This document shows, piece after piece, positions 440 through 61,224 of a stretch of DNA of 64,000 nt. Position 1 is the stretch's first letter. Every line of letters begins with the position of its first letter. The notes under the pieces are model-generated. The model made no database searches. It had not been told where the DNA came from and saw only the letters and a program-made list of their open reading frames with translations. The stretch is from NCBI GenBank assembly GCA_050952645.1, contig JBMNLI010000017.1, positions 64,001 to 128,000 of the forward strand, given 5' to 3'. Made by a program: the position numbers and the translations under genes. Source of the stretch: Bdellovibrionota bacterium. Lineage in GTDB: Bacteria > Bdellovibrionota_C > UBA2361 > CAKMMH01.

Positions 440-471
440 TTTTTATTAGGAGCATTTAAAAGGTAAATACT

Positions 472-957: not shown

Positions 958-1005
958 ATTTTTGCTAGTAAAGTTTTTGTTAGTAAGTTTTTATTAGGTG
1001 CTAAT

Positions 1006-1467: not shown

Positions 1468-1518
1468 ATGGAAAAGAACTCTAAACTTAGAAAGGTTTTA
1501 TAAAGGAGATTTTTTAAT

Positions 1519-22464: not shown

Positions 22465-24510
22465 ATGACTCTATCAGATATAGCAAAAAACATAATCGGC
22501 AATGAAGAAAAAATCTTAAGCGATACTTTAGCTAAAATTAAGGAAAGTAGCGTAGATATGGCGAGAAGAACCGATATAGAAAAAGAAAGGGCTAGCGAGC
22601 TTACGAAAGCCTTAGTAAATGCTAAAACTGACGAAGATAGACAACTTTTAGCATCTGATGAGAGCGTTTCTCATAGCCTAGTAGGAAAAAAGTTAGAGCA
22701 AATAGATATATTACATAAGCAATACGACAAACCATACTTTGCAAGGTTTGAGCTTGAAGAGGAGATAAAGGGGCAAAAAACGACCGTTGAATATAAACTA
22801 GGCTTTTATGGAAACACGGATTGCAGAATTATCGATTGGCGAAAAGCTCCCATTTCAAAGCTTTACTATGAATATAAAGAGGGAGAAGAGTTTTTTGAAA
22901 TTATTCAGGGAAAAGAAAGACAAGGCATCGTAAAATTAAAAAATAAATTAGAAATAGAAAAATCAGTTTTAAATAGGATATCTAGTTCAAAAGGAAATTT
23001 TATCAAGAAAGATGGCTCGTGGGAAGAGATGCAAGGTTCGTTTAGAAGCTATGAACAAGGTAGCCAATCGTATCTTCCAAACGTTATTTCTTTAATCACA
23101 GCAGAACAATTTCAAATGATAACAGAGGATGCAAAAACAGCAGTGCTTATTCAAGGAGTTGCAGGTTCTGGGAAAACTACCGTTGCACTTCATAGACTTG
23201 CTTGGCTTTTACATGAGGATAACTCAGACCTGAAAGCACACGAGGTAGTAGTAATAGTGCTTCATAACTCACTAAAATCATTTATCCTTGAAACTTTGCC
23301 ATCTATGGCAATTCATAATGTTAGAATCTTAACTTTCACCGAATGGGCAACAGAGACTATAAAAAACGAACTCCCAGAGCTTTGCAGAGTTGAGGAACAT
23401 ACTCAAAAAACTTACTTAAAAATCGCCACTTCTCCTTGTCCTATTTCTATATCTAGAGTAAAAAGCTCAATGGCGATGCTTAAATCTCTAGAAAGCCACT
23501 TGCTTTATAAAAAATCATCAGGGCAAAAAATAGCCGACCCATTAAAAGAGATCTTAAATTTATTAGCTAATCCTGAAGATTTAATTTCTAGAGATACCAC
23601 TAAACTAATCTCTAGAGAGATTATAAAACAAAGCTATGAGAGAAGTGTAGTAAATTTTCAAAACAATCAAATCGATGAATCAGATATTCCACTTATACTA
23701 AGACTTTTACAAATTAAAAACGATGGAGTTTACTTGCCATCAAGGTTAGTAGGAAAATACAAGCATATAGTAGTAGATGAGATACAAGATTTTAGTGCTA
23801 CTAATCTTGCCTGCATAATAGGTGGAGTAGAGACTACGAACGACTTAACTTTAGTAGGCGATATAGCACAAAGTGCAAACGAGGCTTCCTTATTTCCTGG
23901 CTGGGATACGCTAAAAAAAGAGTGGAATTTTAGAGATTCTATGTCTAGGTATATTAGTTTAACTGTAAGCCATCGCTCGACGCTCCCTATTATGAAGCTA
24001 GCAGATTACGTTCAAAACAGGCACCTTGTCAAAACTGGAAGAGCTGGAAGAACTCCTATTTGGTTTCAATCTTTTAGAGAGCAAAAAGGACTTAAGGCTA
24101 TAATAAATTGGCTTTTGCAAGCTACTGAAAAGTATCCATCTGCAACGACTTGTGTAATATGCAGAGATGCGAAAGAAGCAAAGTATGCTTTTTCTTTATT
24201 AGAGCCTACCTTTGGTTCAATAATAAGAGTTGGTGATAAGGATAATTTTTCATTCGCTGAAGGGATTATCGTTACGGAAATATCGGAAATTAAGGGATTA
24301 GAGTTTTGCAATGTTGTGATATGGAATCCTACGACGAAAAGTTATCCAAACGATGAAATATCTAGGAATTTACTTTATATAGCGATTACTAGAGCACAGG
24401 AAAATTTAAATATTACCACTTGGGGCAAGCCCTCTTTACTACTTCCTAATATCAACTCAAAACTCGTTAGAGGCGTTCTTTTAAGCGATGAGATTTTAGA
24501 AGAAAAATGA
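22465..24510 (+). CDS. helD: HelD-like SF1 helicase/RNA polymerase recycling ATPase
   Basis: PYFAR, IIDWRKAPISKLYY, IQGVAGSGKTTVALHRLAWLL, VVDEIQD, GD.AQ, KGLEF and LYIAITRA motifs. Confidence 0.75.
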   Translation: MTLSDIAKNIIGNEEKILSDTLAKIKESSVDMARRTDIEKERASELTKALVNAKTDEDRQLLASDESVSHSLVGKKLEQIDILHKQYDKPYFARFELEEEIKGQKTTVEYKLGFYGNTDCRIIDWRKAPISKLYYEYKEGEEFFEIIQGKERQGIVKLKNKLEIEKSVLNRISSSKGNFIKKDGSWEEMQGSFRSYEQGSQSYLPNVISLITAEQFQMITEDAKTAVLIQGVAGSGKTTVALHRLAWLLHEDNSDLKAHEVVVIVLHNSLKSFILETLPSMAIHNVRILTFTEWATETIKNELPELCRVEEHTQKTYLKIATSPCPISISRVKSSMAMLKSLESHLLYKKSSGQKIADPLKEILNLLANPEDLISRDTTKLISREIIKQSYERSVVNFQNNQIDESDIPLILRLLQIKNDGVYLPSRLVGKYKHIVVDEIQDFSATNLACIIGGVETTNDLTLVGDIAQSANEASLFPGWDTLKKEWNFRDSMSRYISLTVSHRSTLPIMKLADYVQNRHLVKTGRAGRTPIWFQSFREQKGLKAIINWLLQATEKYPSATTCVICRDAKEAKYAFSLLEPTFGSIIRVGDKDNFSFAEGIIVTEISEIKGLEFCNVVIWNPTTKSYPNDEISRNLLYIAITRAQENLNITTWGKPSLLLPNINSKLVRGVLLSDEILEEK

Positions 24511-24624: not shown

Positions 24625-27600
24625 TTAAAATATCACTATTAACCCTTTCATAGTAGCCTTTAACTGCTCGGCTGTGGCTTCATCGATAAGAGTGCCTCTA
24701 ATATCTAAAACATCTAAGTTTTTTATTTTGCAAAAATATTGGGCAGCATCATTAGTAATATTAGTATTTCTTAAAGATAAATTTTCAATAGAAAGCCAAG
24801 TTAAATAATAAATTCCCTTATCATCTATCTCAGTATCGTTTAAACTTAATAAGTCTAGACTTCTTAACTTTATTAAATTTTTTAAACCTCTAGATGTAAT
24901 ATTCGTTCCATCTAACTTTAACTCTAAAAGCTCAGGGAGCATACGTAAATACTTTAACGCATCATCACTAATGCTAGTTCCCTTTAAGTCTAACTCCTCT
25001 ACTTTACTAAACGCATTATCACTAAATACTTCGAGCATATCATCACATATACCTAAATAAGATAATAAAAGTACCGTGCCATAACATCTTAAATTTCTCT
25101 TAAAATCATTTTTAATATTATTACTAAAATTTTCACTAAGATTACTGCTAAGATTACTGCTAAGATTATTGCGCTTGCTTTTTATATTTATATTCTTATT
25201 TACATCTTCATTTACATCTTCTAAATAATTACTTTGCTCATTAACGCTTTCAACGCTTTCAAAACTTTCATCATAATCTTCTTTCTCATCTTCCTTTAAA
25301 TCTTCTTTATAATATTCTTTATAATATTCTTCATAATCTTCATCGCTGTAATCTTCTTCGTAATCTTCGTTATTATCTTCGCTGTAATCTTCTTTATAAT
25401 CTTCGCTATAATCTTCATCGTAATCTTTAGTGCGAACTTTAGCGTAATCTTTATCTCCATCTATTTTGCCGTATAACTTTTCTACATCCTCTTTGCTAAG
25501 TGAATAATTTTTTCTACTATACGCTATACATTCTTTTGAAAAATCTCTTTTACTAAACTTAGCTACATCTAAAGTAGTAGCTGAAAACGGCGCAGACACT
25601 TCGCTGTTTATAGACATCTTTACATAAATACTTCTTGGTGCTAGGTTCATAATATCATTTTCAGAAACTATCGGAGCTAACTCTTTTGCAAGCCTTGAAG
25701 CATCATCAGCCCCAGTTCCAAATACGACAATATTTGCTATATTTCCAAAAATCGTATCGACAACCTCCACTGGAAGTTGCTTTAAATACTGATTAGCCAT
25801 CGTTAAATTTAATTTATATTTTCTTGCTTCACTTAAAATCTGATTAACAGACTCAGTCATAAAAGAATGAAACTCATCTATATAAAAATAAAAATCTCTT
25901 CTTCTATGTTCAGGAATATCTGCTCTAGACATAGCCGCATGGTATATTTTAAATACGAGCATAGAACCTAGCAAAGATACGTTTTCATCGCCTAAAATTC
26001 CCTTTGGAAGCTTTAAAAGTAGTATTTTATTATTATCTATAATTTCTCTAAAATTAAATTTACTATCTTTTTGTAAAAAAATATTTTCTAAATACTCATT
26101 AGAAACGAAACTATCAATCTTTTCTAGTAGTGGCAAAACGGCTTCATTGTAGAATTTATGTTGCCACTTGTCGAATTCGTTTATAAAAAAATTGCTAGCT
26201 GCACTATCTGGCGTCTTTTTAGCTAAAGCTAACCTAAAATCCTTATCCGTTAATAATTTTTTTATAGATAAAAGCCCTTCATTTTTCGATGATAATACGG
26301 CTAATAATGCACATCTTAAAAGATGTTCAAGATTATCGTTCCAAATAGATGAAAAAATTTTCTTAAACACTTCTATAAACGATGATACAAATGGCAAACG
26401 ATTTCCATTTGAAACATCGTAAAAAGGATTAAACACTACTGGATAATCTATATCTGTAGGGTCGAATATTATAACATCTTTAATTCTATCTCTAGGAATT
26501 ATAGTAAGTAAATTATCTATTAAATCACCATGAGGGTCTAAAACGCAAAGACCAGCTCCACTCATAATATCATTTTTTGCTAAAAGATTTATTAAAGACG
26601 ATTTGCCATTCCCAGATTTACCTAATATGTAAAGATGCCTCCTCCTATCTTCCTTTCTTATTCCAAAATTAATTTTTACATCTCGATAGTCGGTAGTGCC
26701 AAAATATGCAATATTAGGGTCGTATATATCTATAGGCAAATCTTTCGGAGGCGCTACTTTTACCGAAAGAACCGTAGGAATATTAGTTATATTTTCTATA
26801 CTAGGTATATGCCAAATGGTTGCTAGCTCACTAGTTGAAAATAATGAATATTGCTTATCGATTATTCTCTTAAAAAACTTACTTAAATTATCTGCACCAT
26901 ATTTAATAACTCCCATTTTAAACCCATTTAGATCGTGATTATAAGATTTAAACGCATCGGAAATAAGCGACATATTATTATACAATCTTCTAACCGACCT
27001 TTCTCTAGGAGCTAAGCCTTTAGGAATAAACGCTGCCACTCTTATATTAACTGCACATAAAGACGATTTAAAACATTTTTGCTCTGCACTTTTTAAATAC
27101 TCTTCATGTGGCGTATCGTTAATCCAATACTTAACAGTCGTAAGCATTCTTTTTAATCTATCACGCCTAACTTTAGTATTAAATATCCTAGTAAAAAATG
27201 AGCCAACCTTAAAAGGCTTGCACACTATTTGTATTAAAGCACTATCTTCTAATGAAAAACTAGCTAGTTGATTTATTAAATTAGTAAGCGAGTCGGATAA
27301 GAACTCTTGATAACACTTTATAGGGAAAATACTATTTCTTTTTAACTTTAAATTTGCACTTAAAACTTCAAAATTATCTGCATCTATATTCGATAAATAA
27401 TCGGAAATTTCTCTTATATCACAATACGGACTTGCGGCATATAAAACGCCTTTAATATGATTAGCTATATTTTCATTACAAGCAAAAGTAAAATATATTA
27501 TCTGTTTATAACAAAAAATCTCGAATGAAAAAAAATCATTCTTATTTAAAACACTAAAAGTTTCTGCTAAAAGCCCATCAAGAAGCTTAGCAGCATTATT

Positions 27601-27669
27601 TGCACTCTCTGCCACTCCCCCACCGTTTAAATGAGCACTTCTTGGTATATGTATACAAAAGACTTTCAT
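24625..27669 (-). CDS. VirD4/TraG-like (TrwB/HerA-FtsK superfamily) ATPase with acidic linker and C-terminal LRR domain
   Basis: RRRHLYILGKSGNGKS, DPHGDL, YIDEFHSF and SEARKYKLNLTMANQY motifs, followed by YxED repeats and about five LxxLxLxxTxIxD repeats. Confidence 0.8.
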   Translation of the reverse strand: MKVFCIHIPRSAHLNGGGVAESANNAAKLLDGLLAETFSVLNKNDFFSFEIFCYKQIIYFTFACNENIANHIKGVLYAASPYCDIREISDYLSNIDADNFEVLSANLKLKRNSIFPIKCYQEFLSDSLTNLINQLASFSLEDSALIQIVCKPFKVGSFFTRIFNTKVRRDRLKRMLTTVKYWINDTPHEEYLKSAEQKCFKSSLCAVNIRVAAFIPKGLAPRERSVRRLYNNMSLISDAFKSYNHDLNGFKMGVIKYGADNLSKFFKRIIDKQYSLFSTSELATIWHIPSIENITNIPTVLSVKVAPPKDLPIDIYDPNIAYFGTTDYRDVKINFGIRKEDRRRHLYILGKSGNGKSSLINLLAKNDIMSGAGLCVLDPHGDLIDNLLTIIPRDRIKDVIIFDPTDIDYPVVFNPFYDVSNGNRLPFVSSFIEVFKKIFSSIWNDNLEHLLRCALLAVLSSKNEGLLSIKKLLTDKDFRLALAKKTPDSAASNFFINEFDKWQHKFYNEAVLPLLEKIDSFVSNEYLENIFLQKDSKFNFREIIDNNKILLLKLPKGILGDENVSLLGSMLVFKIYHAAMSRADIPEHRRRDFYFYIDEFHSFMTESVNQILSEARKYKLNLTMANQYLKQLPVEVVDTIFGNIANIVVFGTGADDASRLAKELAPIVSENDIMNLAPRSIYVKMSINSEVSAPFSATTLDVAKFSKRDFSKECIAYSRKNYSLSKEDVEKLYGKIDGDKDYAKVRTKDYDEDYSEDYKEDYSEDNNEDYEEDYSDEDYEEYYKEYYKEDLKEDEKEDYDESFESVESVNEQSNYLEDVNEDVNKNINIKSKRNNLSSNLSSNLSENFSNNIKNDFKRNLRCYGTVLLLSYLGICDDMLEVFSDNAFSKVEELDLKGTSISDDALKYLRMLPELLELKLDGTNITSRGLKNLIKLRSLDLLSLNDTEIDDKGIYYLTWLSIENLSLRNTNITNDAAQYFCKIKNLDVLDIRGTLIDEATAEQLKATMKGLIVIF

Positions 27670-28159: not shown

Positions 28160-31100
28160 TTAGAAATTATTTTTTTGCAACTCGGAAGCTTTGCCCATAT
28201 TTTTCATCTTTTCATCTATCAAGCCTTTAAGCTCTAGTGCATTTTTAAAATCCTTATCGAATATAAAGATCTTTGATAAAACGTCTAAAGCTTCTTCATA
28301 TTCCTGCTTTGCATAATAGCATGCGGCTAAGGAGTATAGAAAATTTAAATCTCCTGGGTGCAAGTCTAAATAATTTTTAAGCACTACCTCTAAATCATCT
28401 AACCTAGAAAGCTTATAAGATAAATCTATTACGCCTAAAAGCGCCCTAACGTTTTCAGGATTAACCTTTAGAGATTTCATATAGTACTTGTAGGCCATAT
28501 CAAAATTATTTTCTTCGATATAACATAACCCTAAACCTGAAAGAGCGACATCATACTTATCATTTATGCTTAATGATAAATTAAATTTTTCTTTAGCTTC
28601 TTCCCACGCACCAGAGGTTGCCATTAAAATTCCTAGGTCAGCTATCGCTCTATAAGATGATGGATTTTTATTTATAACTTGCTCTAGAATTTCAAGAGAA
28701 GAATTGTTATCTCCCTTTAGCATTAAACATTCTGCTTTTAAAATATTTACGTATTCTCTATGATTAGAATTTAGTGAGGTGTTTTGCATTAGCTCATCTA
28801 AACCACTTTCTAGCTCTTTAAAATCCCTATTTTTTTTAGCTTCTTCTAAAGATGCAAGCCTAGCGTCGATAGAGTCAAACATAGGAAAGCTTCCTTCTTT
28901 ACTTTCTAATATTTCAGTTTTACATTTTGAAGCTTCAGATTTTGAAGTTTCAGATTTTGAAGTTTCAGATTTTGAAGCTTCACATTGCGTGCTTTTCTCC
29001 CTAGCATCTTTTAGCGATTTTGCCGCATCTATCTTTTCTTGCATTTCAGCTACACCATTATATAAAGGAGAGATCTCTTTTATCTTATCTAAAGCCTCCT
29101 TAGCGTTAAGAAGGTCATCAGACTTATAACAAATTCCCGCATAAGAAAATAGCATATGAACATTGCTATCATTATTTGCTAAATAAGTTTCTAAAGCCTT
29201 TTTTATATCCTTATACTTATCGGTTAAAAATGAACACTCCATAAGATGCAATAGTGCCACTTCGTTATAAGGGTCAAGCTTTAGCGATTTAATAAATAGC
29301 TCCATCGCTTCATTATAATCTTCACGGCGCATCAAACAGATTCCTAACCCCGATAAAGATTTAACATCACTGCCATCTACCATAAGCGCTTTTTCAAAAT
29401 ATTTTTTCGCTTCACTAACATCTTCTTTAGCTAGAGATACTGCACCGATGCTTCTAAAAAGTTTTAAAGAAGAGCCTACATTTTGCTTAAGTGCAAAGTA
29501 TATTTCTAAAGCTTCATCATACTTATTATTTTCTGCTAAATTTTGTGCTTTTTTAAATTCTTCTTCTTGAAGCAAACTAAGCTCGTTATCTATACCACAC
29601 ACTTCATCTGCTTCTTTTGATATTATATTTTCTTTTATAGTATTATTAAAAGTAGTATCATTAAAAGTAGTATTGTTTAAATTAAAATTACATACTTGAT
29701 TATAAGCAAAAACCGTTTCCCTAGTGCATCGCTCCCAAGAATAGTTTTTTACTAACTCTTTTAGCTCGCCTTTAACGGGACTATAATAAGCTGCCATTAC
29801 AGCATTTTTTATACTATCTAAAGAATACGGGTCGCAATAATATACGGCATCTTTTAAGTAATCAGATATGCTTCCATTTTTGCCTGTTACAACGTTTGCA
29901 CCATAAAAAGCGGCTTCTAACGATACTAGCCCTGGTAGTTCATAGAAACTAGCAAGAGCATGAACCTTACAAGCAGCATAAGCGTCTGCTAAATCTTGTA
30001 AAGGAAGTTTATCTAGAACGATAGTTTCCCCTTTTCTTTTAAAATTTCTAACGGCTTTTGCGTATTCTTTTTGGTATGTAAAACCTCCACTAGCTAACAC
30101 TACTGGTATATCTACATCCTCTAAAGCACTTAGAAGCATTAGCTGATTTTTTCTCGACTCTAATCTTCCAACACAAAATATAAAATCTTTAACATTATAT
30201 TTTTCAAAAAATCTTTCTTTATTTCCCTTTATAGTAGTATTTAAACCAAAATGCGTTTCAAATATTTTTGCTTTTGGAGCATATACTCTTTTTAAATTCT
30301 CGGACTCAGAAGAGCCGCTAGTTAATAGTGCATCGGCATTTTCACATAGCCAAGACACATCGAACGTTTTCGATGGCGTTATAGATTTAATATCTAATTT
30401 TTGATTATTTAAAAACTCTTTGCTCTGCCCATTTTGAACGTATTTCATCATATAATCTGCTACCGCAATAGATTGATTATGAAAAGATTGCACATCTTCA
30501 AATAGAGTAGTTACTACGAAAGGAACGCCGCTCGATTTAGCCTTTACTCCTGCAAGCGTTGAAAAAGTAGGTATAGCAAAATTAAAAATATGCACTAGGT
30601 CGTAATCTTTAAAATTTGTAGCATCTATATTTTCACAAATACCTACAAAAAAACCCATTTGCTCTAAATGCTCTTTTAGTTTTTCCATAACTACTGTATC
30701 TCCCCCACGCTCTAGAAAAGCATTAGGTCTATTAACAAATAGTATTTTCTTTGTTTTATTATTACTCGTATTGTTGTTTATATCTTGATTCATATTTTGG
30801 TTCATATTTTGATTCATATTTTGATTCCTCTTGTTTTCTTTAGTCTTTCCTTTAGTTTCTTTTTTAACTAGCTTGCTAGCCTTACTATCTTCATTTAACT
30901 TAGCTATAACATCTTTAATCTTTTTATACGCTACATTAAACGAATTGTTTTTAATAAATAGTTTGGATTTAGTTTTTAAGTATTCTCTAAGCCTGCTATC
31001 CGTTAGTAAAATCTTTGTAGACTCTCCTACTTTCATGCCTAAAGTTATATGCCATACGCAATCTTCATACTTATTAAACATTGGTGCTAGAGACGTCATT

Positions 31101-33184
31101 AAAACTGCACCATTAGAAAGCGCTAAGTTTGCAGCCCCTGAGCTTTCATAATAGGAAGATTGGTAATTTAACATTACTAAATCTGCACTTTGTATATACT
31201 CATTTAATTTTTCATCTGAAATAAACTCACTTATAACTTTTATATTATTTTCTAAATTAAAATTTTTAATAATATTTTTTATCTCCCTTAAGTAGCTTTC
31301 ACTTTTAACATCATCTTTTCTAGTAGAGCCAGCTATTACGCCCTTTACTTTTATGCCTCTATTTAAACAGTAATGAACTCCTTCAATTACTGCTTCTTGT
31401 CCTTTATGAGGTTGCATAAAACCAAAAGTTAATATTAGCTTTTCATCGCCTTTAACTCCTAAATCTTTTCTTACCTGTTCTTTTCTTTCCTCGCTAATTT
31501 GCTCTATCTCTTTTAAGCCTAAAGGAACTACGAAAATCTTAGAGCTTTCAGTGCCATTTGCGATAATTTGAAGCTTATTTTCAGGAGTATGAACAAATAT
31601 TCCATCTGCTATATCACAAAAACTTTTAAGTGAAAGGTCGAACGTGTTATGAAAATGAATTATTATTTTTAAGCCAAACTTTTTTTGCTCATTAAGTAGC
31701 TCTATAAGATTAGTTTTTATAAAAACGTGTGGGTGAAAATATATATATAGCGTATCTATATTATTATCATTAATTGCTTTTATTAAGCGTGAAAAATCTT
31801 CATCGTTTCTATTCCAACATCTAACTACATTTTTATTATCTAAACTTTTATCTGCATCTAGTGCATCTTCACCTAAAATGGTTATGTTTAAATCCTTAAA
31901 TTCTTCTAATAGAAATTTTGAATATTTAGCAATACCACAAGGCTGTTCCCACGTTGTAAGAAAACCTATCTTATTATTTATTTTATTATTTACTTTATTA
32001 GTAGTTTCTAGTTCTTCTTTTCTAGTTTCATCTTCTAGTTTATTTTCTAGTTTATTTTCTAGTTTATTTTTTATATCATTAAGATTTGGTTCTAGATTTA
32101 ATTTAAGATTTGCTTGAAGATTTGCTTGCGTGTAAGCTATAAAATCTTTTGCAGTATTATCCCAATTAAATCTTTTAGGGTAATTTTGAGAAGCGTAATT
32201 AGAAAATCTTATTAGCTTTTCTTTATCTGAAAGTAGCTCATCTAACGCATCATAAAGAGCTTCTACTGAAACTCGTTTTACTATCTTTCCACTTTTCCCA
32301 TCTTCTACGCATTCTTTTATTCCTCCTACATCAAAGCCTACTACTGGGCAACCGCTCACTTGCGCCTCTACGGCGGTTAATGGGAAGGAGTCGAATTGTC
32401 TAGATGGAATTACGCAAATGCCTGCTTCTTTCATAGCATTAGATACCACTTCTTGTGAAACAGCGCCATGGAATTTTATAGATGGAACTATTTTCACAAT
32501 TTCTTTTTTATCGAGAAACTCTTCTTGTCCCCAAAGTTTTGCAGAACCGTAAATATCTAGCGATAAGTCTTTATGCTTTGAAACTAAATTAGCATAAGCT
32601 TGAATTAGTATATCTACCCCTTTATGTGGAACTAAAGCACCAACAAAAATAAGTTTCTTAAAATTTCTCTTATCTATATCTCCTACCGTAAATCTTTCTA
32701 AATCTGCTCCGTTGTAAATTACTTTTATTTTTTTCCCGTCGCCTCCCCCGTTTATTATCATCTGTTTTTGAGCTTTGCTTACACAAATAATTCCATCACA
32801 TAATCTTGAAAGAATTTCAGGTTTAACACCAAAGGCTGCACTAGATGGGTCGTGGCATATTAAAAATCTTCCTAAACAATTAGGCTCGTTTTTTGCTAAA
32901 AGGATAGGAAATGCTCTAGAAGCCGCTAGCAAAATATATTTTCCGAGAGTTTTTGCTCTTTTCAAGATTTTTTCTATATCGTAATCTTCACCAAAATCCC
33001 AAAACTCTACTCCACCTCTAATGCATTCTTTAGAGTCTGGCAAATAAGCACAAAGCACTACTCTCGCTCCTTGTTTTGCTAGGGCGCTAGCTAGTTTAAG
33101 CGTTGCAACTACAGTGCCGCTATTTTGCCCAACTAAATAAAGTGGGTGGTCGGAATGAAAAAATAGGTATGTCATACTATTCAT
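28160..33184 (-). CDS. Multidomain glycosyltransferase: three GT-B (GT4-like) modules plus a TPR region
   Basis: GT4 motifs in three modules (FVGAL..KG..PS..DSFPLTAVEA; FGF..PHKG..SSGA; VGRLESRKNQ..S.YELPGLVSLEA). The C-terminal ~450 aa show TPR-like helical repeats. Confidence 0.85.
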   Translation of the reverse strand: MNSMTYLFFHSDHPLYLVGQNSGTVVATLKLASALAKQGARVVLCAYLPDSKECIRGGVEFWDFGEDYDIEKILKRAKTLGKYILLAASRAFPILLAKNEPNCLGRFLICHDPSSAAFGVKPEILSRLCDGIICVSKAQKQMIINGGGDGKKIKVIYNGADLERFTVGDIDKRNFKKLIFVGALVPHKGVDILIQAYANLVSKHKDLSLDIYGSAKLWGQEEFLDKKEIVKIVPSIKFHGAVSQEVVSNAMKEAGICVIPSRQFDSFPLTAVEAQVSGCPVVGFDVGGIKECVEDGKSGKIVKRVSVEALYDALDELLSDKEKLIRFSNYASQNYPKRFNWDNTAKDFIAYTQANLQANLKLNLEPNLNDIKNKLENKLENKLEDETRKEELETTNKVNNKINNKIGFLTTWEQPCGIAKYSKFLLEEFKDLNITILGEDALDADKSLDNKNVVRCWNRNDEDFSRLIKAINDNNIDTLYIYFHPHVFIKTNLIELLNEQKKFGLKIIIHFHNTFDLSLKSFCDIADGIFVHTPENKLQIIANGTESSKIFVVPLGLKEIEQISEERKEQVRKDLGVKGDEKLILTFGFMQPHKGQEAVIEGVHYCLNRGIKVKGVIAGSTRKDDVKSESYLREIKNIIKNFNLENNIKVISEFISDEKLNEYIQSADLVMLNYQSSYYESSGAANLALSNGAVLMTSLAPMFNKYEDCVWHITLGMKVGESTKILLTDSRLREYLKTKSKLFIKNNSFNVAYKKIKDVIAKLNEDSKASKLVKKETKGKTKENKRNQNMNQNMNQNMNQDINNNTSNNKTKKILFVNRPNAFLERGGDTVVMEKLKEHLEQMGFFVGICENIDATNFKDYDLVHIFNFAIPTFSTLAGVKAKSSGVPFVVTTLFEDVQSFHNQSIAVADYMMKYVQNGQSKEFLNNQKLDIKSITPSKTFDVSWLCENADALLTSGSSESENLKRVYAPKAKIFETHFGLNTTIKGNKERFFEKYNVKDFIFCVGRLESRKNQLMLLSALEDVDIPVVLASGGFTYQKEYAKAVRNFKRKGETIVLDKLPLQDLADAYAACKVHALASFYELPGLVSLEAAFYGANVVTGKNGSISDYLKDAVYYCDPYSLDSIKNAVMAAYYSPVKGELKELVKNYSWERCTRETVFAYNQVCNFNLNNTTFNDTTFNNTIKENIISKEADEVCGIDNELSLLQEEEFKKAQNLAENNKYDEALEIYFALKQNVGSSLKLFRSIGAVSLAKEDVSEAKKYFEKALMVDGSDVKSLSGLGICLMRREDYNEAMELFIKSLKLDPYNEVALLHLMECSFLTDKYKDIKKALETYLANNDSNVHMLFSYAGICYKSDDLLNAKEALDKIKEISPLYNGVAEMQEKIDAAKSLKDAREKSTQCEASKSETSKSETSKSEASKCKTEILESKEGSFPMFDSIDARLASLEEAKKNRDFKELESGLDELMQNTSLNSNHREYVNILKAECLMLKGDNNSSLEILEQVINKNPSSYRAIADLGILMATSGAWEEAKEKFNLSLSINDKYDVALSGLGLCYIEENNFDMAYKYYMKSLKVNPENVRALLGVIDLSYKLSRLDDLEVVLKNYLDLHPGDLNFLYSLAACYYAKQEYEEALDVLSKIFIFDKDFKNALELKGLIDEKMKNMGKASELQKNNF

Positions 33185-37208: not shown

Positions 37209-38045
37209 ATGGATATTACTCAAGTTATTTTTATAATTTTATTCGGTTTAATTATAGGAAGCTTTTTATCTGTATGTATTTTTAGGCTTCCCATAGGTAG
37301 GTTTGATGCGTTAGATGATGATGGGGAAGCCGTGCCAAGCGATAAAGAAAAGATGTCTATATTTTATCCTACTAGGTCTTTTTGTCCTAGTTGCAAAAAT
37401 AATTTAAGGTGGTATCACAACATCCCTGTTTTAAGTTGGTTAGTATTAAGGGGTAAGTGTTCATTTTGCAAAACTAAAATTTCTTTTCGTTATCCGTTAG
37501 TAGAAATTATTAGTGCTATTTTTGCATTTTTATCTTTTTATTTTTATGGTGCTACCTTAGAGGGGTTTATTATATATGCGTTTTGTGCCGTGCTTATCGT
37601 GTTATCGTTTATCGATATAGATTATTTTATTTTACCGAATATTATTACTTATCCTGTAAGTATTATAGGTATAATTTTAGTATCGTTTAATCATTTTTTT
37701 CATTTTTTAAATTTTCCTTTTTGTGGTAGTTTTAAATGTCTCTTTCTTGGGCTTTTAGGAGCATTATTTTTATATTTAATCGGGGCACTTCATGGTTTTA
37801 TAAGAAAAAAAGAGGGTTTAGGCTTTGGAGATATTAAGCTACTTATAATGATTGGAGTATTTTTTGGTCTTCCTTCGTCTTTTTATACTATATTTTTAGG
37901 CTCTATATTAGCTATTATCGGCACTATAATTATCGCAATTTTTAAAAAAAACTCTCTTTCTGAACCACTTCCTTTTGGCCCATATTTAAGTTTAGGCTGT
38001 GTTTTATATTTGTTTTATTTTAGTTTTAGCACAATAGCTTTTTAA
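37209..38045 (+). CDS. pilD: Type IV prepilin peptidase
   Basis: GSFL.VCI.RLP, two CxxC pairs, NIPVLSWL.LRGKC, GLGFGDIKL and LPFGPYL motifs. Confidence 0.93.
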   Translation: MDITQVIFIILFGLIIGSFLSVCIFRLPIGRFDALDDDGEAVPSDKEKMSIFYPTRSFCPSCKNNLRWYHNIPVLSWLVLRGKCSFCKTKISFRYPLVEIISAIFAFLSFYFYGATLEGFIIYAFCAVLIVLSFIDIDYFILPNIITYPVSIIGIILVSFNHFFHFLNFPFCGSFKCLFLGLLGALFLYLIGALHGFIRKKEGLGFGDIKLLIMIGVFFGLPSSFYTIFLGSILAIIGTIIIAIFKKNSLSEPLPFGPYLSLGCVLYLFYFSFSTIAF

Positions 38046-52439: not shown

Positions 52440-54332
52440 ATAGGGTAGAGCGAGGGCTATACCCTCTCCCTCCCGTCGCACCGTACGTACGGGTCTCGTA
52501 TACGGCGCTCCATTAATATAATATCAAGTAATACTCAGGTAATACGTCAAAGGGTCGATTAAACCAATTCGTTCCTTTGTTTTACGCCCCAATATTTTAG
52601 GGCTTAAGCATAATTCACTACGTACCACGAACTGCGTCTATACCAGCCGAGTCTGCTGTTAGCAACCTTATAGATTTCTTCATTTCTAAAATTGCAACCA
52701 AGCATTCGGTTCAATTTCTTAAGATTTAGATAGATTCGTCTCGGCAATTTCCACTGTTTAAGTATTATAACCCTCACTTTGTGTCTAAGCCATTGACCAT
52801 ATTTATCTATAAAAGTCTTAAGAGTTCCTATCTTATAATAGTTTATCCAACCTTTAATTAACCAGCTTAGCTGTTGAAATGTCGAACCTAACGTTCGTGC
52901 CATTGCCTTCCGTCTACAAAGAATTTCTCTAGTTTTATCATAGAGTTTTCGTTTGCGATCTTCAGCAGGTTTACATTTCCAAGTTTTATACCCACTCTTC
53001 CAGTAGGTAAAGCCTAAGAAAGTGCTTTCCGTCGGCCTAGAGATTTTACTCTTACTTGAATTAATTTTAAGTCGTAGCTTACGCTCCAACCAACTCGCAA
53101 CGGACTTCATTACTCTATTAGCAGCCTTTTCACTTCTAACAAATATATTACAGTCATCGGCATATCTAACAAACTTAAGTCCTCTTGCTTCCAGTTCCTT
53201 GTCGAGCTTATCAAGGTATATGTTAGATAATACTGGGGATAATGGACCTCCTTGCGGAACTCCTTTCTCACTTACAGTAAACAATCCATCTTCCATTATA
53301 CCAGCTCTTAAGAACTGTCTTATCAATCGTAGTGTCTTCGCATCTTTGATGCGTTCCCTGATTATCGAAATTAATTTGTCGTGATTAACAGTATCAAAAT
53401 ATTTCTCTATGTCTAGGTCTATAACCCAATCATAGCCTCTTTTCAAGTACTCAAGAGTTCTATATACTGCTAGATGGCAATTCCTTCTAGGTCTAAAGCC
53501 ATAGCTACTATTACTAAAATACTTTTCGTATCCGCGTGCTAGTATTTGCGCTACCGCTTGTTGAATTACCCTATCTACTACTGTAGGTATTCCTAAAGGT
53601 CTCATCTTACCATTAGCTTTAGGTATATACACTCTCTTAACTGGACTCGGCTTATAATTCCCTTCACGTATCTGAGATTTTATCTCTTCTCTGTGAACGG
53701 CAAAATAGTCTTCAAGCTCATCTACTGGCATATCATCTACACCAGATGCACCTTTATTTCGCTTAACAGCCTTTATAGCCTCATCTATATTTTTGTCTGA
53801 TATAATCAGTTCAATCAATTCCACCTGTTGCTCCTCCCTCTGTTTGTAAAGCTACTAGAAAACACCCCCTCTATCTTCTGCCCCCACAGGTTACGTTCCT
53901 GTTTGTTAGGCATATCTTCAATTTCGGACTCTTCTAGCCTTGCTTACAGTGATTCACAATATATTAACGTTCAACCCTTCCTTGAGTGGTGTCTCAAGTA
54001 CTATGGTATCAACTGACTTCCAGATATAAGCTTTATATCGCACGTGCATAGCACGCTATCTGGACCTCCCGGGGTAAGGCATAGTTCTTTCACCAGACAA
54101 CCTCCAGATTTACTCGTTTGGTTTTACGTTTGTCTTTAGGGCTTCGGTTTGTAGCGCAACCTCACCCACCATTTAGCCTTGTATCTGGTTTCTGTTCGTA
54201 GGCTCCTTGGTTTTGATCCGCCACTTCCTTCACTCTAACATTACTGCTTCGAGCTTGTGGCATCACTACACTTGGTGACAACTACCCGTGACGGGACTTT
54301 CACCCGCTAGAACTATGTCGTGCCCGGCACAC
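52440..54332 (-). mobile_element. Group IIC intron (1893 nt)
   Basis: 5' end GTGTG at 54332. Short domain V GCGCCGTATACGAGACCCGTACGTACGGTGC with the CGC triad. Domain VI has a bulged A and ends ..CCCTAT. The encoded RT lacks an endonuclease domain. Confidence 0.93.
52604..53824 (-). CDS. ltrA: Group II intron reverse transcriptase/maturase (C-terminus frameshifted; full frame would end at 52524)
   Basis: RPLGIPTVVDRVIQQA, SYGFRP, DIEKYFD, GVPQGGPLSP, RYADD, FLGF and GWINYY motifs. GTG start after GGAGGAG. Confidence 0.93.
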   Translation of the reverse strand: MELIELIISDKNIDEAIKAVKRNKGASGVDDMPVDELEDYFAVHREEIKSQIREGNYKPSPVKRVYIPKANGKMRPLGIPTVVDRVIQQAVAQILARGYEKYFSNSSYGFRPRRNCHLAVYRTLEYLKRGYDWVIDLDIEKYFDTVNHDKLISIIRERIKDAKTLRLIRQFLRAGIMEDGLFTVSEKGVPQGGPLSPVLSNIYLDKLDKELEARGLKFVRYADDCNIFVRSEKAANRVMKSVASWLERKLRLKINSSKSKISRPTESTFLGFTYWKSGYKTWKCKPAEDRKRKLYDKTREILCRRKAMARTLGSTFQQLSWLIKGWINYYKIGTLKTFIDKYGQWLRHKVRVIILKQWKLPRRIYLNLKKLNRMLGCNFRNEEIYKVANSRLGWYRRSSWYVVNYA

Positions 54333-54555: not shown

Positions 54556-55363
54556 CAAAAATTCCACTGTTTTACGTATGCTATTTTTAAGAGAGTAAAA
54601 GTTTGGTCATTTGAAGTTCTGCTTTTGTTTATTCGCGATCGTACCAATCGCTAGCAACCTTAATTTTTTTTATTTCAGACAAACGTCTAATAGCATCATT
54701 TATTCTCTCGCTGGGTTTAATACCCCGTTGCTTGCAACGGAGATGCCTTGAGTGTGAATGCACTCAAGGACGGAACACGACTGCAATTAGTTATATACAT
54801 TGCAATAAGCTTAAGTGTTCCGTTTCGCGAAGCGTTAAAATACCCCCGCTACGCGAAGCGTAGTCGGCTGTCTAGTAGACAGCCGAGTGCTTGCACCGTG
54901 GGTAGTTTATTTTCTTTTATAATTTTTAATATGCTATACCAAAACTAAAGAGCTATATGATTTATAAACATCCAACCTTGAAACTTGTCATCATCTGACA
55001 TAAATTGTGCATCTGCCTTCAATGTCGTTTTTAAAGTATCAAACGTTTGCTCTATCGTTGTCCTCATTTTATACATAGTATAAATATCTTCAGGGGGGAG
55101 ATCTTTGTTAGAAAAAAGTGCGATAGTGCCTATAGTAATTTTTCTGCTACGCTTCTTTGTTGTTAATGTCAATATAGCAAACCTCTCTCTCTGTCTTTTG
55201 CTCTATACTTTGTTGCCCAAGATGAGTATTTATGTTGTTTTTTTATCATACGTATATACGTATACTATTTTAGCACTTTATACAAGTACTTTTTAAAACT
55301 TTTTAAATGATTTCAATATGTTATGTAATTAAAATTATATACGTAAAAGAAGGGAAAGTTTGG
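54556..55363 (-). mobile_element. Internally deleted IS1634-like (IS4-superfamily DDE) remnant, parent of repeat B
   Basis: Ends match the MITE inverted repeats. Transposase pieces: N-terminus MIKKQHKYSSWATKYRAK, core 'IYTMYKMRTTIEQTFDTLK..FINHIAL*', and C-terminus INDAIRRLSEIKKIK..W. Confidence 0.75.
54699..54911. mobile_element. ~210 bp GC-rich multi-hairpin insertion (REP/PATE-like) inside the IS remnant
   Basis: At least six palindromes, bounded by TTTATT direct repeats. It interrupts the transposase reading frame. Confidence 0.65.
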
Positions 55364-55428: not shown

Positions 55429-55457
55429 AAAAAAGAGCTCCTTGAATCGAGGAGCTC
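55429..55457 (-). terminator. Rho-independent terminator
   Basis: Minus strand GAGCTCCTCGATTCAAGGAGCTC followed by TTTTT, downstream of the 55503-56375 ORF. Confidence 0.8.
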
Positions 55458-55502: not shown

Positions 55503-56375
55503 TTACGGTGCTACTTCATTGCCATTATTAGCTTCAGCCCGAACTCGTGCATCTAGTATCGCTTGATTCTTAGCGATATTATTATTCCTTTCTTCTCGCG
55601 TTATAATATGAAACTCGGCATCTCTAAGCTCTATAGCAAAGTCTTGATTTTGTAAAGCCGCTTTTGGAATACCAAGTAATTCTAAATGATAACTTGCAGC
55701 CTGAAAGCAAAAGCTTTCACAAGACGCAAGCATCTTATCGAGTTCATCTTTCGCCTCTGATATAGCCTTAAGTAGCTCATCATTTTTTTCTTTTTTAGCG
55801 AGTTCTTTTAACTTAGGGAATACCAAATCAGCAAGAACGCATTTATACTTTGCGGTTGCGACTTTAGCTAAAAACTTACGATCTGTTAAAAGCTTCTTAT
55901 CACTCTTTTTCGATAGCTCAAGTTTAGTACTCCTTACAAACTCAAGCACAGGCTCGGTAAAATCCTTATTTATTGAATTACAGTTGTTAGTAACTCTAGT
56001 GCCAGCACGTTTTTTACCAATAACTGAAATATCATTTACCTTACCTTGGAATGCGAGCGTATATTTTTCAAGCAAATTAAGCTTTCGCTCTAACGACATA
56101 TTAACATCGAGAGTGCGTTCACTTAACTTATATCCAAGCATGTTCCTAAAAAGATCCCAATTAGTTCTCTCGTTAAATTCCATCTTTTCTACAAAAGACC
56201 AACTAGGAATAAAAAGTTCCTCTTTAGGTTCAGTAGGATTGAAATTGAAAACTGGGCCAACATTCTTAGGCGAGTTGCCTTGTGCAACGCAAACTTGCAC
56301 TTGCGAAGTAGCAAACAATGCCAAACACGCTACTAGTAAAGTAGCAACAAATGGAACCTTCTTCTTCTTGTCCAT
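55503..56375 (-). CDS. Hypothetical secreted helical protein
   Basis: Signal peptide, an RBS-like AAGGAGAGG upstream and its own terminator. Confidence 0.75.
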   Translation of the reverse strand: MDKKKKVPFVATLLVACLALFATSQVQVCVAQGNSPKNVGPVFNFNPTEPKEELFIPSWSFVEKMEFNERTNWDLFRNMLGYKLSERTLDVNMSLERKLNLLEKYTLAFQGKVNDISVIGKKRAGTRVTNNCNSINKDFTEPVLEFVRSTKLELSKKSDKKLLTDRKFLAKVATAKYKCVLADLVFPKLKELAKKEKNDELLKAISEAKDELDKMLASCESFCFQAASYHLELLGIPKAALQNQDFAIELRDAEFHIITREERNNNIAKNQAILDARVRAEANNGNEVAP

Positions 56376-56608: not shown

Positions 56609-59600
56609 TTAAGGTGCTAGAGGTGGTGGCACTATCATTCCATTATCTTCACAAGAACCACAAAGAGGCGCCATATAAGTAGAGCCATCATTTCTAATGC
56701 ATCGTGTTATAGGACACTTAAGAAACTACACACCTGCCACTTTCACACCTTAGTTTATAGCTATCACAATCTGCATCATTTTCGCAAAGCTTGCCATAAT
56801 TCTTTTCCCCAAGCGAACACCTGTATATATCATCCTCAAACCGTATACAATTACCTCCGCAACATTCTTCAGTCATACTGCCTGGCGTGCAACCTAAAGG
56901 TTTAAAATTCTCCCCAGACATACAATTATACTCTCCTTTACATTCGCCATTATCACACGTTCTTCCTTCGCCACAACACTCACCACCACATAACGGCTCA
57001 CGACAACAATATTCATAAATATCATGCGTATATATACGATCTATCTCACAGCAACCACTTCCTAAGTATGATGTATAAGCAACTTTACCCTCATCGCAAC
57101 ATTTAGAACCATCGTAAACTCTCTCTGTTGGGCAACACGTCCCATTTACAAACTTACCATCGCAACATTCACTTCTATCATTATAACAATCTTGCTCACT
57201 AGAACAGCAATTAGTTCCACAAGCATAAGAACCACTTTCGCAACTCGCTTGGCTTTCTAAACTTTTACTAGATACACTACTTACAGATTCCGCTTCATAA
57301 CTATTATAACTTCCACTAGATGTGCTACTTTCACTTTCGTTTGTACACCTACCAGTATTTTCATCATATGCCTCACCAGATGGACAACATGCAAATATCT
57401 CTGTTTCCCAATTGCTATATGCGCAATACTCTCCAAGTTTACAACAGGAAGAGCCACACGTTCCAGTCGTATTATCTGTAAGTGGGTTGCAACAAACATC
57501 TATTAGTTCTCCTGTAAAACTATTCGTCACACTCCCAACATAATAATCGTTAGGTCTAGCACAGCAACCTTGATAATCAGGATCATTTGAATCTGTATAA
57601 ACAGTCCCATCACAACAGTATTGCTTAGTATCAGAAGCACTTCTATAAACAGTTCCATTACAACACGTATAAGTTATTTTTCCAAGTATTAATTCATTTA
57701 TCATACTTTCATCTGCCTCTTTCAAGCTATTCTCTTGAGCTTCTGTTAGCGATGACATACATTTATCGGCATCACAGCATACACCAGAAGGACATTGAAC
57801 CTGTCCATCTTTAGAACAACACGATCTAGCTGGCACAACTTCCCGTGTTCCATCTTCATGAATACGAATATACCTAAAAGAATCTTTTATATCGGCACAA
57901 TATATAGCTTCTGGATCATCTCCCTCAACACCAGTTGGGCAACAACTCCCCCCACAGTAAACTGAATCCTCTAAACAACACACAGGTTCCCCAGAAGGAT
58001 TAAATTTCTCACCTTTCTCTATGCCTAATCCTTTAAGTTTAGGAGTTCCTTCAGGACAGCAATATCCCATAACATAGCTTTCACCATCAACTTGAACTAC
58101 TTCTTCGCCTGCTACAAAACCTTCACCGCAGTCAAAAGAGCATGTAAATGTTATATTGCTATTTTGATCCATATGATACTGTGCAATTTCTCCATCTTCA
58201 CAGCATAATTTTTCTCCGAACTCTCCTTCAAAATAATTCTCATCTTTGCAACAACCATCCCCGGGGTCGCCATTTTCTTTATTGCAACACCTATTATCAT
58301 TCCCACTAGGATTATTACCATCGATATTATCCATGCACGTATACCCAGCAGGACACGTACAGCCTACAAATGGTGGCAAACTACTAGAACTAGAATAACT
58401 ATCGCTATAAGAATAACTAGAAGAACTACTATAAAAATAATTTGGTCTACTTGAACTAGATTGAGAACTATAACTACTAAAAGATGAACTCGAACTTAAT
58501 GATACCGACACTCTACTTAACGAAGACGAAACGCTTCCTAGAGATATAGAAAAACTACTAGGTGCCAAAGAATAATTGCTAGACTTACTAGACAATGAAG
58601 AGCCACTAAATAAAGAACCGTTAGATATACTAGATACAGATGATATAACACTACTTAAAGAACTTAAGCTACTACTAGGCGATAAACTGCTTTTGCTACT
58701 AGACGATGAACTCTTACTAGAAGAGCTACTGCTAGATAAACTTTGCGAACTGCTTTTACTAAAACTACTTGAACTCAAACTTAAAGAGCTAGACGATGAA
58801 CTCTTACTACTAGATGATAAACTAGAACCTAAAGAGCTAGAAGAACTACTACTTAGCGAAGAACTACTACTTAGCGAAGAACTCTTACCACTAGATGAAC
58901 TGCTTTTGCTACTAGACGACGAACTAGGACTTAAAGAACTAAACGAACTACTACTAGGTGAACTACTCTTGCTCGAACTGCTTTTGCTACTAGAAGATAA
59001 GCTAGGACTTAAAGAGCTAGAAGAACTACTACTTAGCGAAGAACTCTTACTAGATGAAGAGCTAGAACTACTAGATGAAGAACTCTTACTTGAACTAGAA
59101 CTACTTTTACTACCAGAAGATGAACTACTACTAGACGAACTTGATAAGCTACTTTTACTACTTAACGATGAACTTTTACTTAAACTAGAACTTAATGAAC
59201 TAAAAGAACTACTACTAGGCGAACTACTCTTACTACTAGACGGACTACTACTAGATGAAGAACTCTTACTAGAACTGCTTGAACTAGGGCTACTAGAAGA
59301 ACTTAATGAACTGCTCTTGCTACTAGAAGATGAACTCTTACTAGAAGAACTACTCTTGCTTGAACTAGGACTTAAAGAACTACTTGACGAAGAACTTTTA
59401 CTAGAGCTACTTTTGCTACTAGAACTACTACTTAATGAACTAGCTGAACTGCTCTTACTACTAAAAGATAAACTACTCTTACTACTAGATAAAGAACTCT
59501 TACTAGAACTAGAACTTTTCTTACTAGAACTAGAACTTTTCTTACTAGAACTACTACTGCTAAGCGAACTACTAGAACTGCTAGGCGATAATGAACTACT

Positions 59601-60553
59601 ACTACTAGAAGAACTAGGATATGAGCTACTACTACTAGATGCACTGCTACTAGATAAACTGCTCCTACTAGACGATGAACTGCTAGATGACGAACTGCTA
59701 CTAGACGAACTCCCCTTAGGTGAACTAGATGTATCGAAAATTTGCGCAGTCCTAAAAAAACCTACATGAAACGAATCTGCTATGAGAGGCTCATCACCTA
59801 ACAACTTAAATATATCTAATATTATACCAGACTTAATATAAATCTTCCCTCCCTTCATTGTCCTAAGTTTTATCGTCTCACTTTCTTTATCAACGGGAGC
59901 AAAATCTAAATATTCTTCCTTCTTCCACAAACTCCCTCAGGAGTTTAGTAGTCTTTATACTATCATTATCTAATTTTATACCAGGAATTAAAATAGCATA
60001 CTTAGCTATACACGGCTCCCCTTTTAACTCAAAATATTTAAAGCCTAGTTGCTTAGGGGTCGCCACCTTTTTCGATAATGCTAAATTATAAGCCGTAATC
60101 CAAAATTTACATATAGATAGGACAATCTTTAGATAGAGCTTGCACCTCAGGCACTTCGCATACTTCATCTATTTCACTTCGAGTTTTCCCCCTTACAGAC
60201 TCACAATTAGGAACGTCTGTATCTCTTAAACCGTCTAGGCAATACTCTCTTAAGGCTACCATAAAATGAGGTGAAACATCGACTACAAATTGCACTGGCC
60301 TATTTTCTACAGCTATTAACAAGTCTAGATTTCTCTCATTTAAACATACTATATGAAAAACAAATACGAAAACATGCGTCACTACCCATGTAAGTGCAAA
60401 ATAATAAAAACAAACTATAGCCATCTCTGATAAAACGCTACCACGACTCGAATGAGACTTTTTATATTTATTTTTCATCAAATTTTTATTTTGAAAGAAA
60501 TTTTTAAAGAAATTTTTCAATCGGTTGTTTGAGGTTAAAAGGAATTTCAACAT
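56609..60553 (-). pseudogene. Giant TadE-like pilin/Ser-rich/Cys-rich surface protein interrupted by three frameshifts (largest intact piece 56718-59930)
   Basis: ORFs 60107-60553, 59890-60168 and 56718-59930, plus an unlisted Cys-rich tail ending at 56609, each overlap by a +1 shift. The N-terminus has the prepilin motif RG|SVLSEMAIV. Confidence 0.7.
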
Positions 60554-61012: not shown

Positions 61013-61224
61013 GCTCTTCACGTTTTAAGGTAGTTTTAAATTTTCAAAATTAGTACAACTCCCCCCACGAAGCCTAAAAGAAAACTGACTTTAAAGGATT
61101 TACATAAAACAAATTACTTTGTATAGAGCTATAAAAAATCTTTATCTAGTCGAACACTAAAGCAAATTTTCTTTTAAGCTAACAAAAAAACAATTCTTCC
61201 AACCCACTCAGAACGTGAAGAACC
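61013..61224 (-). repeat. Full repeat-A copy (long-loop variant, reverse orientation)
   Basis: CTCTTCACGTTTTAAGGT..AAAAGAAAACTGACTTTA..TAAAGCAAATTTTCTTTTAAGCTAAC..AACCCACTCAGAACGTGAAGAACC. Confidence 0.88.

Follow-up and report, generated by a model that had tools for sequence, protein, structure and literature searches.

A run of overlapping reading-frame fragments on the minus strand of a Bdellovibrionota genome raises the question of whether the fragments belong to one gene and, if so, what the encoded protein might do. The fragments occupy positions 56,609 to 60,553 of a 64,000-nucleotide stretch (contig JBMNLI010000017.1, positions 64,001 to 128,000; hereafter, the window), where an earlier note made from the letters alone had proposed a giant adhesin anchored by a TadE-type pilin. 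Our analysis shows a single gene, one of a multi-copy family whose heads have been exchanged, and leans, with moderate confidence, towards a product that is a TadE-like minor pilin carrying an adhesive head at the tip of a Tad pilus. The genome (G000; its contigs bear C-numbers) comprises 1.95 Mb in 17 contigs and is 93.75% complete. Relatives are designated G001, G002, G003 and G016 and sequencing runs by X-numbers; the runs that hold the sequence best come from digesters, bioreactors and landfill, and there is no RNA run among the listed holders.

The minus strand contains open reading frame (ORF) A (60553-60110), ORF B (60168-59893) and an open frame of 1,072 codons (59936-56721), beyond which lies a further piece of 38 codons. 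ORFs A and B and the 1,072-codon frame join via two extra bases (60117 and ~59939) to give a product of ~1,252 amino acids (aa). Four frames had previously been joined into ~1300 codons; a natural stop separates the fourth piece (56609-56717) from the rest. This stop is found at four places in the genome and is spanned by a contig of run X3 with no difference or gap, and the head is therefore 553 aa long rather than the ~590 aa first given. ORF A starts at ATG 60478 (alternative ATG 60553) with the basic leader MKNKYKKSHSSRG|SVLSE, which has Glu at +5 and is followed by 32 mostly hydrophobic residues and a globular domain of ~240 aa, in line with the anatomy given in the earlier note. The 1,072-codon frame encodes the end of the globular domain, the Ser stalk and the Cys-rich head without any break. 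In 300 shuffles of the region the longest open frame was 199 codons, and 2,000 shuffles of the head contained at most 15 CC pairs, compared with the 22 observed; as both observed values exceed all shuffles, they are not due to chance. An antisense Leu/Glu-rich ORF (58576-59769) was rejected as a shadow of the Ser codons, and promoter-like sites occur at chance level (20 versus 19.5). The parts of the gene are as follows.

60440..60478, minus strand: basic class III-type leader ending in Gly(-1); the upstream in-frame ATG 60553 adds 25 residues; the motif is repeated in an intact paralogue, and homologues have G|STIIEF and G|AVLVEF.
60344..60439, minus strand: stretch predicted to form the alpha-1 helix of a TadE-like pilin, with Glu at +5; it has diverged (Met at +6, IELG/MEMG motif of the family lost) and aligns without gaps with a Pfam TadE-positive orthologue.
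59730..60343, minus strand: remainder of the N-terminal domain, globular, in which Cys, FW, PG and H-G motifs are conserved; in-frame copies are 94-96% identical.
60117, minus strand: frameshift 1, caused by a private extra base that is probably an error of assembly (1/8 copies, 0/6 covering runs).
59937..59939, minus strand: private extra base, frameshift 2, at a site that also has a different natural out-of-frame allele.
58380..59729, minus strand: Ser-rich stalk of 450 codons, predicted extended, a candidate for O-glycosylation.
56718..58379, minus strand: acidic Cys-rich head of 553 aa with CC-spaced modules, a mosaic of segments common to other copies, with the natural stop at its end.
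56609..56717, minus strand: remnant of a 3' extension; C12:32196-36104, a divergent paralogue, is the only copy in which it is translated.

The claim of one gene was examined against paralogues and homologues, in which the TadE-like and Ser/Cys-rich parts might have stood consistently in separate ORFs. Both kinds were found to be single ORFs. The genome holds 17 full or partial copies of the giant pilin gene, seven of them with the leader, and two are intact: C17:327083-323838 (1,082 aa, N-terminus ~95% identical to that of the window copy) and C12:32196-36104 (1,303 aa, N-terminus 26% identical, head homologous), the latter being the only copy in which the tail is read through. In G001, from the same genus, the syntenic orthologue of C12:32196-36104 is one ORF, in which linkers rich in Thr, Pro and Asn replace the Ser run; a second G001 copy with a Thr run leaves its contig, and one further copy occurs in G003. 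A profile search returned three clusters with 29 members, drawn from ENA, Logan and NCBI assemblies; among the 22 listed, 14 are single ORFs (1,263-1,317 aa) and 8 are shorter pieces. One record, P0038, is the same frameshifted reading as the window and does not count as independent. A word search with the intact paralogue P0001 found no longer homologue and no locus among the named genomes, and the single 24-residue match from a metagenome scan with P0002, which had no matching ORF, was rejected as chance. In this assembly the giant pilin gene is annotated as fragments, and such fragmented calls show how genes of this kind escape annotation. From the window alone neither the multi-copy family nor its near-identical N-termini and exchanged heads could be seen.

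Several lesions recur among the copies. A frameshift at the site matching 60422 is common to five of the seven leader-bearing copies and was seen in runs X1, X3, X4 and X8; another at 59939 is common to three copies and was seen in runs X1, X3, X4, X5 and X7. Several copies have a 222-bp miniature inverted-repeat transposable element (MITE) at 59993, one of them with a group II intron inside the MITE, and the MITE junction is present in runs X1 and X5. These shared lesions are real because they are present in several runs. The MITE itself has terminal inverted repeats and 113 matches in the genome (32 of them 180 bp or longer; some are tandem), and its copy at C12:89290 shows an 8-bp target duplication. 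The group II intron, which inserts inside the MITE, has ~10 near-identical genome copies; that of the window spans 52.4-54.36 kb (reverse transcriptase ORF 52604-53824; Rfam matches 52440-52510 and 54079-54250), its ORF shortened by a private 1-base deletion.

The status of the window copy turns on its two extra bases. That at 60117 is found in one of eight copies and is missing from all six runs covering the site. At 59939, nine copies comprise the window allele (1), the in-frame sequence (5) and the shared +1 allele (3), the corresponding counts for seven runs being 0, 2 and 5; a run X2 contig spanning 59629-60453 has neither extra base. Gaps in the coverage of the head by runs X2 and X3 were left out of account. 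Nine near-identical copies of the group II intron, one of them 4 kb from the giant pilin gene, served as a control for error signatures, and contained 14 private indel columns (12 insertions) versus 6 substitutions, a pattern that probably reflects uncorrected assembly errors in repeats. As both breaks in the window copy are private +1 bases in the repeated part of the gene and resemble these errors, we consider the copy probably intact in the cell. Certain observations count against this. The corresponding N-terminal stretch is free of private frameshifts in six other copies, so that an assembly error becomes less convincing as the cause; the second break sits where a natural out-of-frame allele exists; and 4/9 intron copies have no indel. 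Moreover, absence of the window alleles from the runs is not proof, because the runs were represented by Logan contigs, in which paralogues are collapsed. These same points, and the breakage of most copies by real, shared lesions, would suit a true pseudogene or silent head store, with both extra bases present in the cell and expression limited to C17:327083 and C12:32196. We regard this as quite possible, if short of an even chance: the window copy is one of only 2/7 leader-bearing copies in frame at 60422, is MITE-free and keeps 1,072 open codons in its unique part, and its breaks are of the type seen in the intron copies. Slippage or programmed frameshifting was rejected, the breaks lying outside homopolymer and repeat tracts.

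The nature of the N-terminal domain was addressed through its relatives. The Pfam TadE model (PF07811) has a curated cut-off of 22.9 bits. The domain at C43 of G001, 35% identical to the window domain and gap-free in the helix, passes this model at 27.0 bits and was matched by profile A1 with an E-value of 4.2e-42; the G003 protein (23.4 bits) and a stand-alone 227-aa homologue, P0037 (32.8 bits), also pass, and a TadE match at E<=0.05 is present in 7/10 aligned members. The gap-free alignment with TadE-passing homologues points to descent from a TadE-like pilin, and thus supports classification of the domain, on grounds of ancestry, as a diverged TadE-like minor pilin. Within the expanded subfamily the sequences indicate drift in alpha-1, with Gly(-1) and Glu(+5) kept. 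The proposal of a TadE-type pilin accordingly stands as regards descent, through the TadE-positive homologues, and not as regards the window domain itself, which has no Pfam TadE match.

TadE genes are found in 80/81 genomes of the order, often with long extensions. The N-terminal domain family itself was detected in just 3/4 genomes of the family, and beyond these only a helix match was found, in G016. That genome has two giant TadE-Cys genes, L040:3913-9129 (1,739 codons) and L107:2244-6932 (1,563 codons), located between tadE and tadG-like genes. Their products match the window family over alpha-1 only, and by this comparison represent a related but separate giant-pilin design.

The machinery required by a Tad pilin is largely encoded in the genome. 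The Tad genes lie at two loci, with two RcpC genes adjoining T2SSE ATPases, TadB/C-like and Flp-like genes, and there is a separate TadE and TadG-like pair on C5. The prepilin peptidase pilD, which the earlier note had placed in the window, is present at 37209..38045; no other A24 peptidase was found in the genome. When the N-terminal domain was modelled together with the TadE and TadG-like proteins of C5, the predicted complex had a weak score of 0.39, versus 0.00 for the best of three controls; agreement between runs was at least 10% of contacts, the partners had a predicted local distance difference test (pLDDT) value of at least 66, and the score fell to 0.00 once the TadG-like chain was replaced. 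For comparison, the mark set for this score was reached by 116/157 solved and 2/215 mismatched pairs, and at <=0.60 by 18/157 solved pairs and both mismatches.

Other results speak against placement on a Tad tip. ORF A of the window and the intact paralogue P0001 match no TadE model in Pfam, and their helix is without the family motif; no copy of the gene in G000 lies inside a tad or tadEFG cluster; and no third, Tad-type secretin was found, PF00263 having only two matches in the genome. DsbB and DsbD were likewise not found in the genome, which is relevant to the isomerisation of 70 Cys. Scans of the window pieces with Pfam and NCBIfam returned nothing. The model of the N-terminal domain is of low confidence (pLDDT 53.7) with a long helix at residues 11-58, and fold searches with it were uninformative, returning no pilins (none at E<=0.001 with Foldseek; generic helices only with VIA-align, best Z 5.7). 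In the ESM Atlas the nearest clusters to P0002 are unnamed or 27% TadE (0.91-0.92), a lead only. The lack of a Pfam TadE match in the subfamily, the distance of the genes from tad loci, the pilin-free fold searches and the presence of type IVa and type II secretion system (T2SS) genes would all accommodate a membrane-anchored, or type IVa- or T2SS-linked, surface or periplasmic protein whose diverged helix is a mere anchor without entry into a Tad tip. We judge this unlikely given that Gly(-1) and Glu(+5) are retained in both in-frame copies, that homology with TadE-positive orthologues is gap-free, and that the complex prediction, weak as it is, is lost when the TadG-like chain is swapped.

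The stalk (59729-58380) consists, as claimed, of about 450 residues, of which 333 (74%) are Ser, with 32 Leu, 29 Lys and 13 Pro. In other copies its length ranges from 70 to 487 aa. Relatives have Thr/Pro-rich stalks, and Ser and Thr/Pro linkers interchange between species and also within the genome (cassette C17:315021). The conserved property would seem to be hydroxyl-rich low complexity, which fits a glycosylated spacer. Candidate glycosyltransferases of the GT-C type comprise seven PMT_2 proteins above the cut-off, including a membrane enzyme at window positions 19026-20663, and one Wzy_C protein. The window also encodes a 1,674-aa protein (28160-33184) with three GT1/GT4 glycosyltransferase domains and many tetratricopeptide repeats, possibly a protein glycosyltransferase.

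The head (58379-56721) is acidic and contains 70 Cys within its 553 aa, with 22 CC and 20 CxxG motifs. Its Cys pattern is kept in homologues that are 36-54% identical. The predicted structure is all-beta, a chain of beta-hairpins (pLDDT 68.3). The Foldseek check that had been suggested for the head returned no match at E<=0.001, the best VIA-align hit was to a granulin (Z 2.9, no clear structural match), and there was no usable match in the ESM Atlas and none among PDB sequences for profile A4. The head of the G001 protein is matched by the galaxin-like family PF24748 (E 2.9e-4, 21.2 bits, below the cut-off of 28), and that of the window is not; the likeness to galaxin-like repeats is in the tandem CC-spaced modules. 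VKOR is present in the genome. A DSBA-like gene, similar by eye, adjoins both a cassette array (C17:311600-312253) and a giant TadE cluster of G016 (L040:2225-2848).

The earlier note had also drawn an analogy with the serine-rich repeat (SRR) adhesins. SRR glycoproteins are surface proteins of Gram-positive hosts with Ser-X dipeptides and an LPxTG wall anchor, exported by accessory Sec. As in the streptococcal and staphylococcal proteins, a long Ser-rich stalk lies beside a putative binding region, and the analogy holds in composition only. The anchor here is N-terminal (the opposite polarity), the stalk is poly-Ser rather than Ser-X, and the host is diderm; no LPxTG anchor was read at the C-terminus, and Asp2 (PF16929) was not found in the 93.75% complete genome, the other accessory Sec components not having been searched. 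The giant pilin adhesin is not an SRR protein.

The heads of the different copies have been exchanged. That of the window copy is composite: nothing closely similar was found for the initial 580 bases, and the segments after them, with sharp ends, correspond to C10:28300 (94%), C14 (96%), C12:88797 (87%), C12:32196 (79%) and a tail fragment on C10 (96%). Behind C17:327083 lie three 5'-truncated head cassettes that are 85-97% identical to the intact gene. The G001-like proteins are mosaic as well; P0006 combines a P0007-class N-terminus and tail with P0008-class sequence at residues ~400-1000. Synonymous divergence (dS) between heads is 0.36-1.6, with a nonsynonymous-to-synonymous ratio (dN/dS) of 0.26-0.37, versus a dS of 0.03-0.05 for the corresponding N-termini (dN/dS 0.60-0.76, from a small number of changes). 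The sequences thus record past exchange of heads by recombination and purifying selection on them, and the high dS of heads beside the low dS of N-termini indicates old, selected heads behind recently homogenised anchors. Many heads behind dead N-termini are still open for 500-1,200 codons.

It might be asked whether the copies and mosaics are artefacts of assembling a repetitive region, given that the copies on C14 and C17 are 99.7% identical across 2.66 kb and that the assembly has indel errors in repeats. This we find very unlikely. The shared lesions, the MITE junction and the replaced head segments recur in runs from several studies, head divergence is far beyond error, and mosaics occur in other assemblies too. 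A less remote alternative is that the copies are by-products of MITE- and intron-driven duplication in a small, repeat-rich genome, neutral mosaics of a decaying family without selected variation. The 113 MITE matches and ~10 intron copies, the lesions common to several copies, the N-terminal dN/dS and the inclusion of neighbour genes in duplicated units would agree with such an origin, and relatives have only 0-2 copies. The shared frameshift in 5/7 leader-bearing copies and the MITE in several also fit decay; the expansion is not a general one, with only two N-terminal matches in G001 and none in G002, and these facts detract from a selected exchange system. Purifying selection on the heads, the many open heads behind dead N-termini, and the clean three-way mosaics of intact G001-like proteins in independent assemblies are difficult to reconcile with neutrality, and we hold the by-product explanation to be somewhat unlikely.

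For the tip-pilin reading that we favour, the following mechanism can be envisaged. Prepilin peptidase would cut the leader at G|S, and the processed pilin would join the tip of a Tad pilus together with the TadE/TadG pair of the genome. The Ser stalk, likely glycosylated, would hold the head away from the pilus, and the Cys-rich head, predicted to be disulfide-bonded, would act in adhesion. The near-identical N-termini and Ser runs may provide crossover sites that place different heads behind a working pilin anchor. A bolder extension, which we advance tentatively and think doubtful, is an antigenic-variation-like Tad tip system in a free-living, probably predatory or host-attached lineage: a few expressed mucin-like pilins would take heads from silenced copies, and short-tract conversion in the N-terminal region would switch loci on and off.

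Tad pilus tips are described as determining the behaviour of predatory bacteria on contact in the accessible part of a study by Herrou et al. 2025 (PMC12075869). As far as that text goes, TadE/TadF/TadG minor pilins and the Myxococcus Kil 'Tip' complexes share with the present family a prepilin site, alpha-1, extended C-termini, several paralogous tips, many predicted disulfides and predatory relatives. They differ in that the variable domain of Kil tips is on the TadG-like KilN, encoded in tip clusters (PMC12075869), whereas in the present family a TadE-like protein of ~1,250 aa, which also has a Ser stalk of 450 aa, bears it, the genes are scattered, and recombination has shuffled heads among 17 copies. 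By analogy, the family may function in the manner of a Tad tip pilin whose distal domain varies. Within the Bdellovibrionota phylum Tad is needed for prey invasion, according to the available portion of a preprint (bioRxiv 10.64898/2026.07.08.737194). The Bdellovibrio bacteriovorus system described there resembles the present one in its phylum label, in dispersed tad genes that include a lone tip-pilin gene, and in the lack of a dedicated TadV in the tad loci; that portion describes no giant Ser/Cys-rich TadE, and predation by the present organism is conjectural. The mosaic adhesive trimers (MATs) of Bdellovibrio are likewise, in the accessible text of Caulton et al. 2024 (PMC10769870), a chimeric surface-fibre repertoire with varied tips in Bdellovibrionota. 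They are trimeric, phage-like fibres for which that text gives no pilin anchor or Ser stalk, and the likeness drawn here is one of description.

With regard to the arrangement of copies, Neisseria pilE/pilS is a comparable cassette system. In Borrelia vls, as outlined in the accessible part of Norris and Brangulis 2024 (PMC11499132), an intact gene is likewise followed by 5'-truncated copies, and segmental mosaics arise; with an identity of 85-97% the present cassettes agree with the level of about 90% expected of such a system. Unlike vls, there are here two or three candidate expression loci (two intact copies and probably that of the window), the copies are dispersed among other genes and no immune host is known. 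The copy structure can be compared to vls on these grounds, short of its full definition.

No description of the TadE, Ser-stalk and Cys-head architecture was found in the literature, most subscription papers and supplements being outside the coverage of the search. Described Tad tips are compact and fixed; here a long Ser/Thr stalk and a Cys-rich head, a design akin to eukaryotic mucins, appear to be set on a TadE-type anchor, and heads have been exchanged within one genome and among strains. If this exchange is active, it would allow a non-pathogen to vary its target range by cassettes, and the heads could serve as probes for the prey or host of an uncultured digester lineage.

The genes neighbouring the copies were considered as possible functional partners of the heads. 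Further features of the window that bear on this and on the preceding points are listed here.

55503..56375, minus strand: 290-aa protein with a signal-peptide-like start, 3' of the gene; all its paralogues adjoin copies of the giant pilin family.
55435-55457: terminator-like hairpin after the gene of the 290-aa protein.
37209..38045, plus strand: prepilin peptidase (A24), the sole one found in the genome, which would process the leader.
61013..61222, no strand assigned: copy of the 222-bp MITE; the same element breaks other gene copies at the site matching 59993.

Besides 55503-56375, the secreted ~290-aa family, which has conserved Cys, is represented at C10:327800-331900, C10:25838-26641, C12:90824-91711 and C14:22806-23649; it is genome-specific and found only 3' of giant pilin family members. 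A lipoprotein-like family without a Pfam assignment is interleaved with head cassettes in the opposite direction (C17:312436-323765, C6:25879-26790 and C7:40695-42562). Members of these two families adjoin the giant pilin family almost without exception. The type of partner follows the type of tail, the secreted family coming after one head class and the lipoprotein-like family after the other, and orphan tail-plus-partner repeats are present at C10:327800-331900 and C17:312400-323800. This linkage could suggest a polymorphic-toxin-like arrangement, with the secreted protein or lipoprotein encoded 3' of the gene acting as cognate partner of the variable tails. Pfam and NCBIfam scans, however, placed head, tail and downstream partners in no toxin or enzyme family, the tails are short and Cys-rich, and the 290-aa partner of the window was not found in 20 relatives, including G001, which has the giant pilin gene. 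Duplications spanning the 3' end yield the same linkage. Co-duplication explains the association of tail and partner, and a cognate-partner role is a minor and very unlikely rival.

Other genes of the window were noted as well. A TraC/VirB4-like ATPase and its neighbours (2-4230) suggest a core type IV secretion-like system of the lineage, the ATPase being 62-89% identical in 34 named genomes, of which the closest (86-89%) bear the labels Bdellovibrionota or Bdellovibrionales, and a TraD/VirD4-like coupling ATPase (24625-27669) has an acidic linker and, by eye, apparent C-terminal leucine-rich repeats. A UvrD-family helicase, which we take to resemble HelD, is encoded at 22465-24510, and fragments of a DDE transposase lie at 54748-55296. 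Elsewhere in the genome (C15:33821-43231, C2:44785-48672 and C7:156068-160039) there are other very large secreted Cys-rich proteins (1,296-1,662 codons), in which CC pairs are absent, as well as a protein of RCC1-like repeats that has a Thr/Pro linker.

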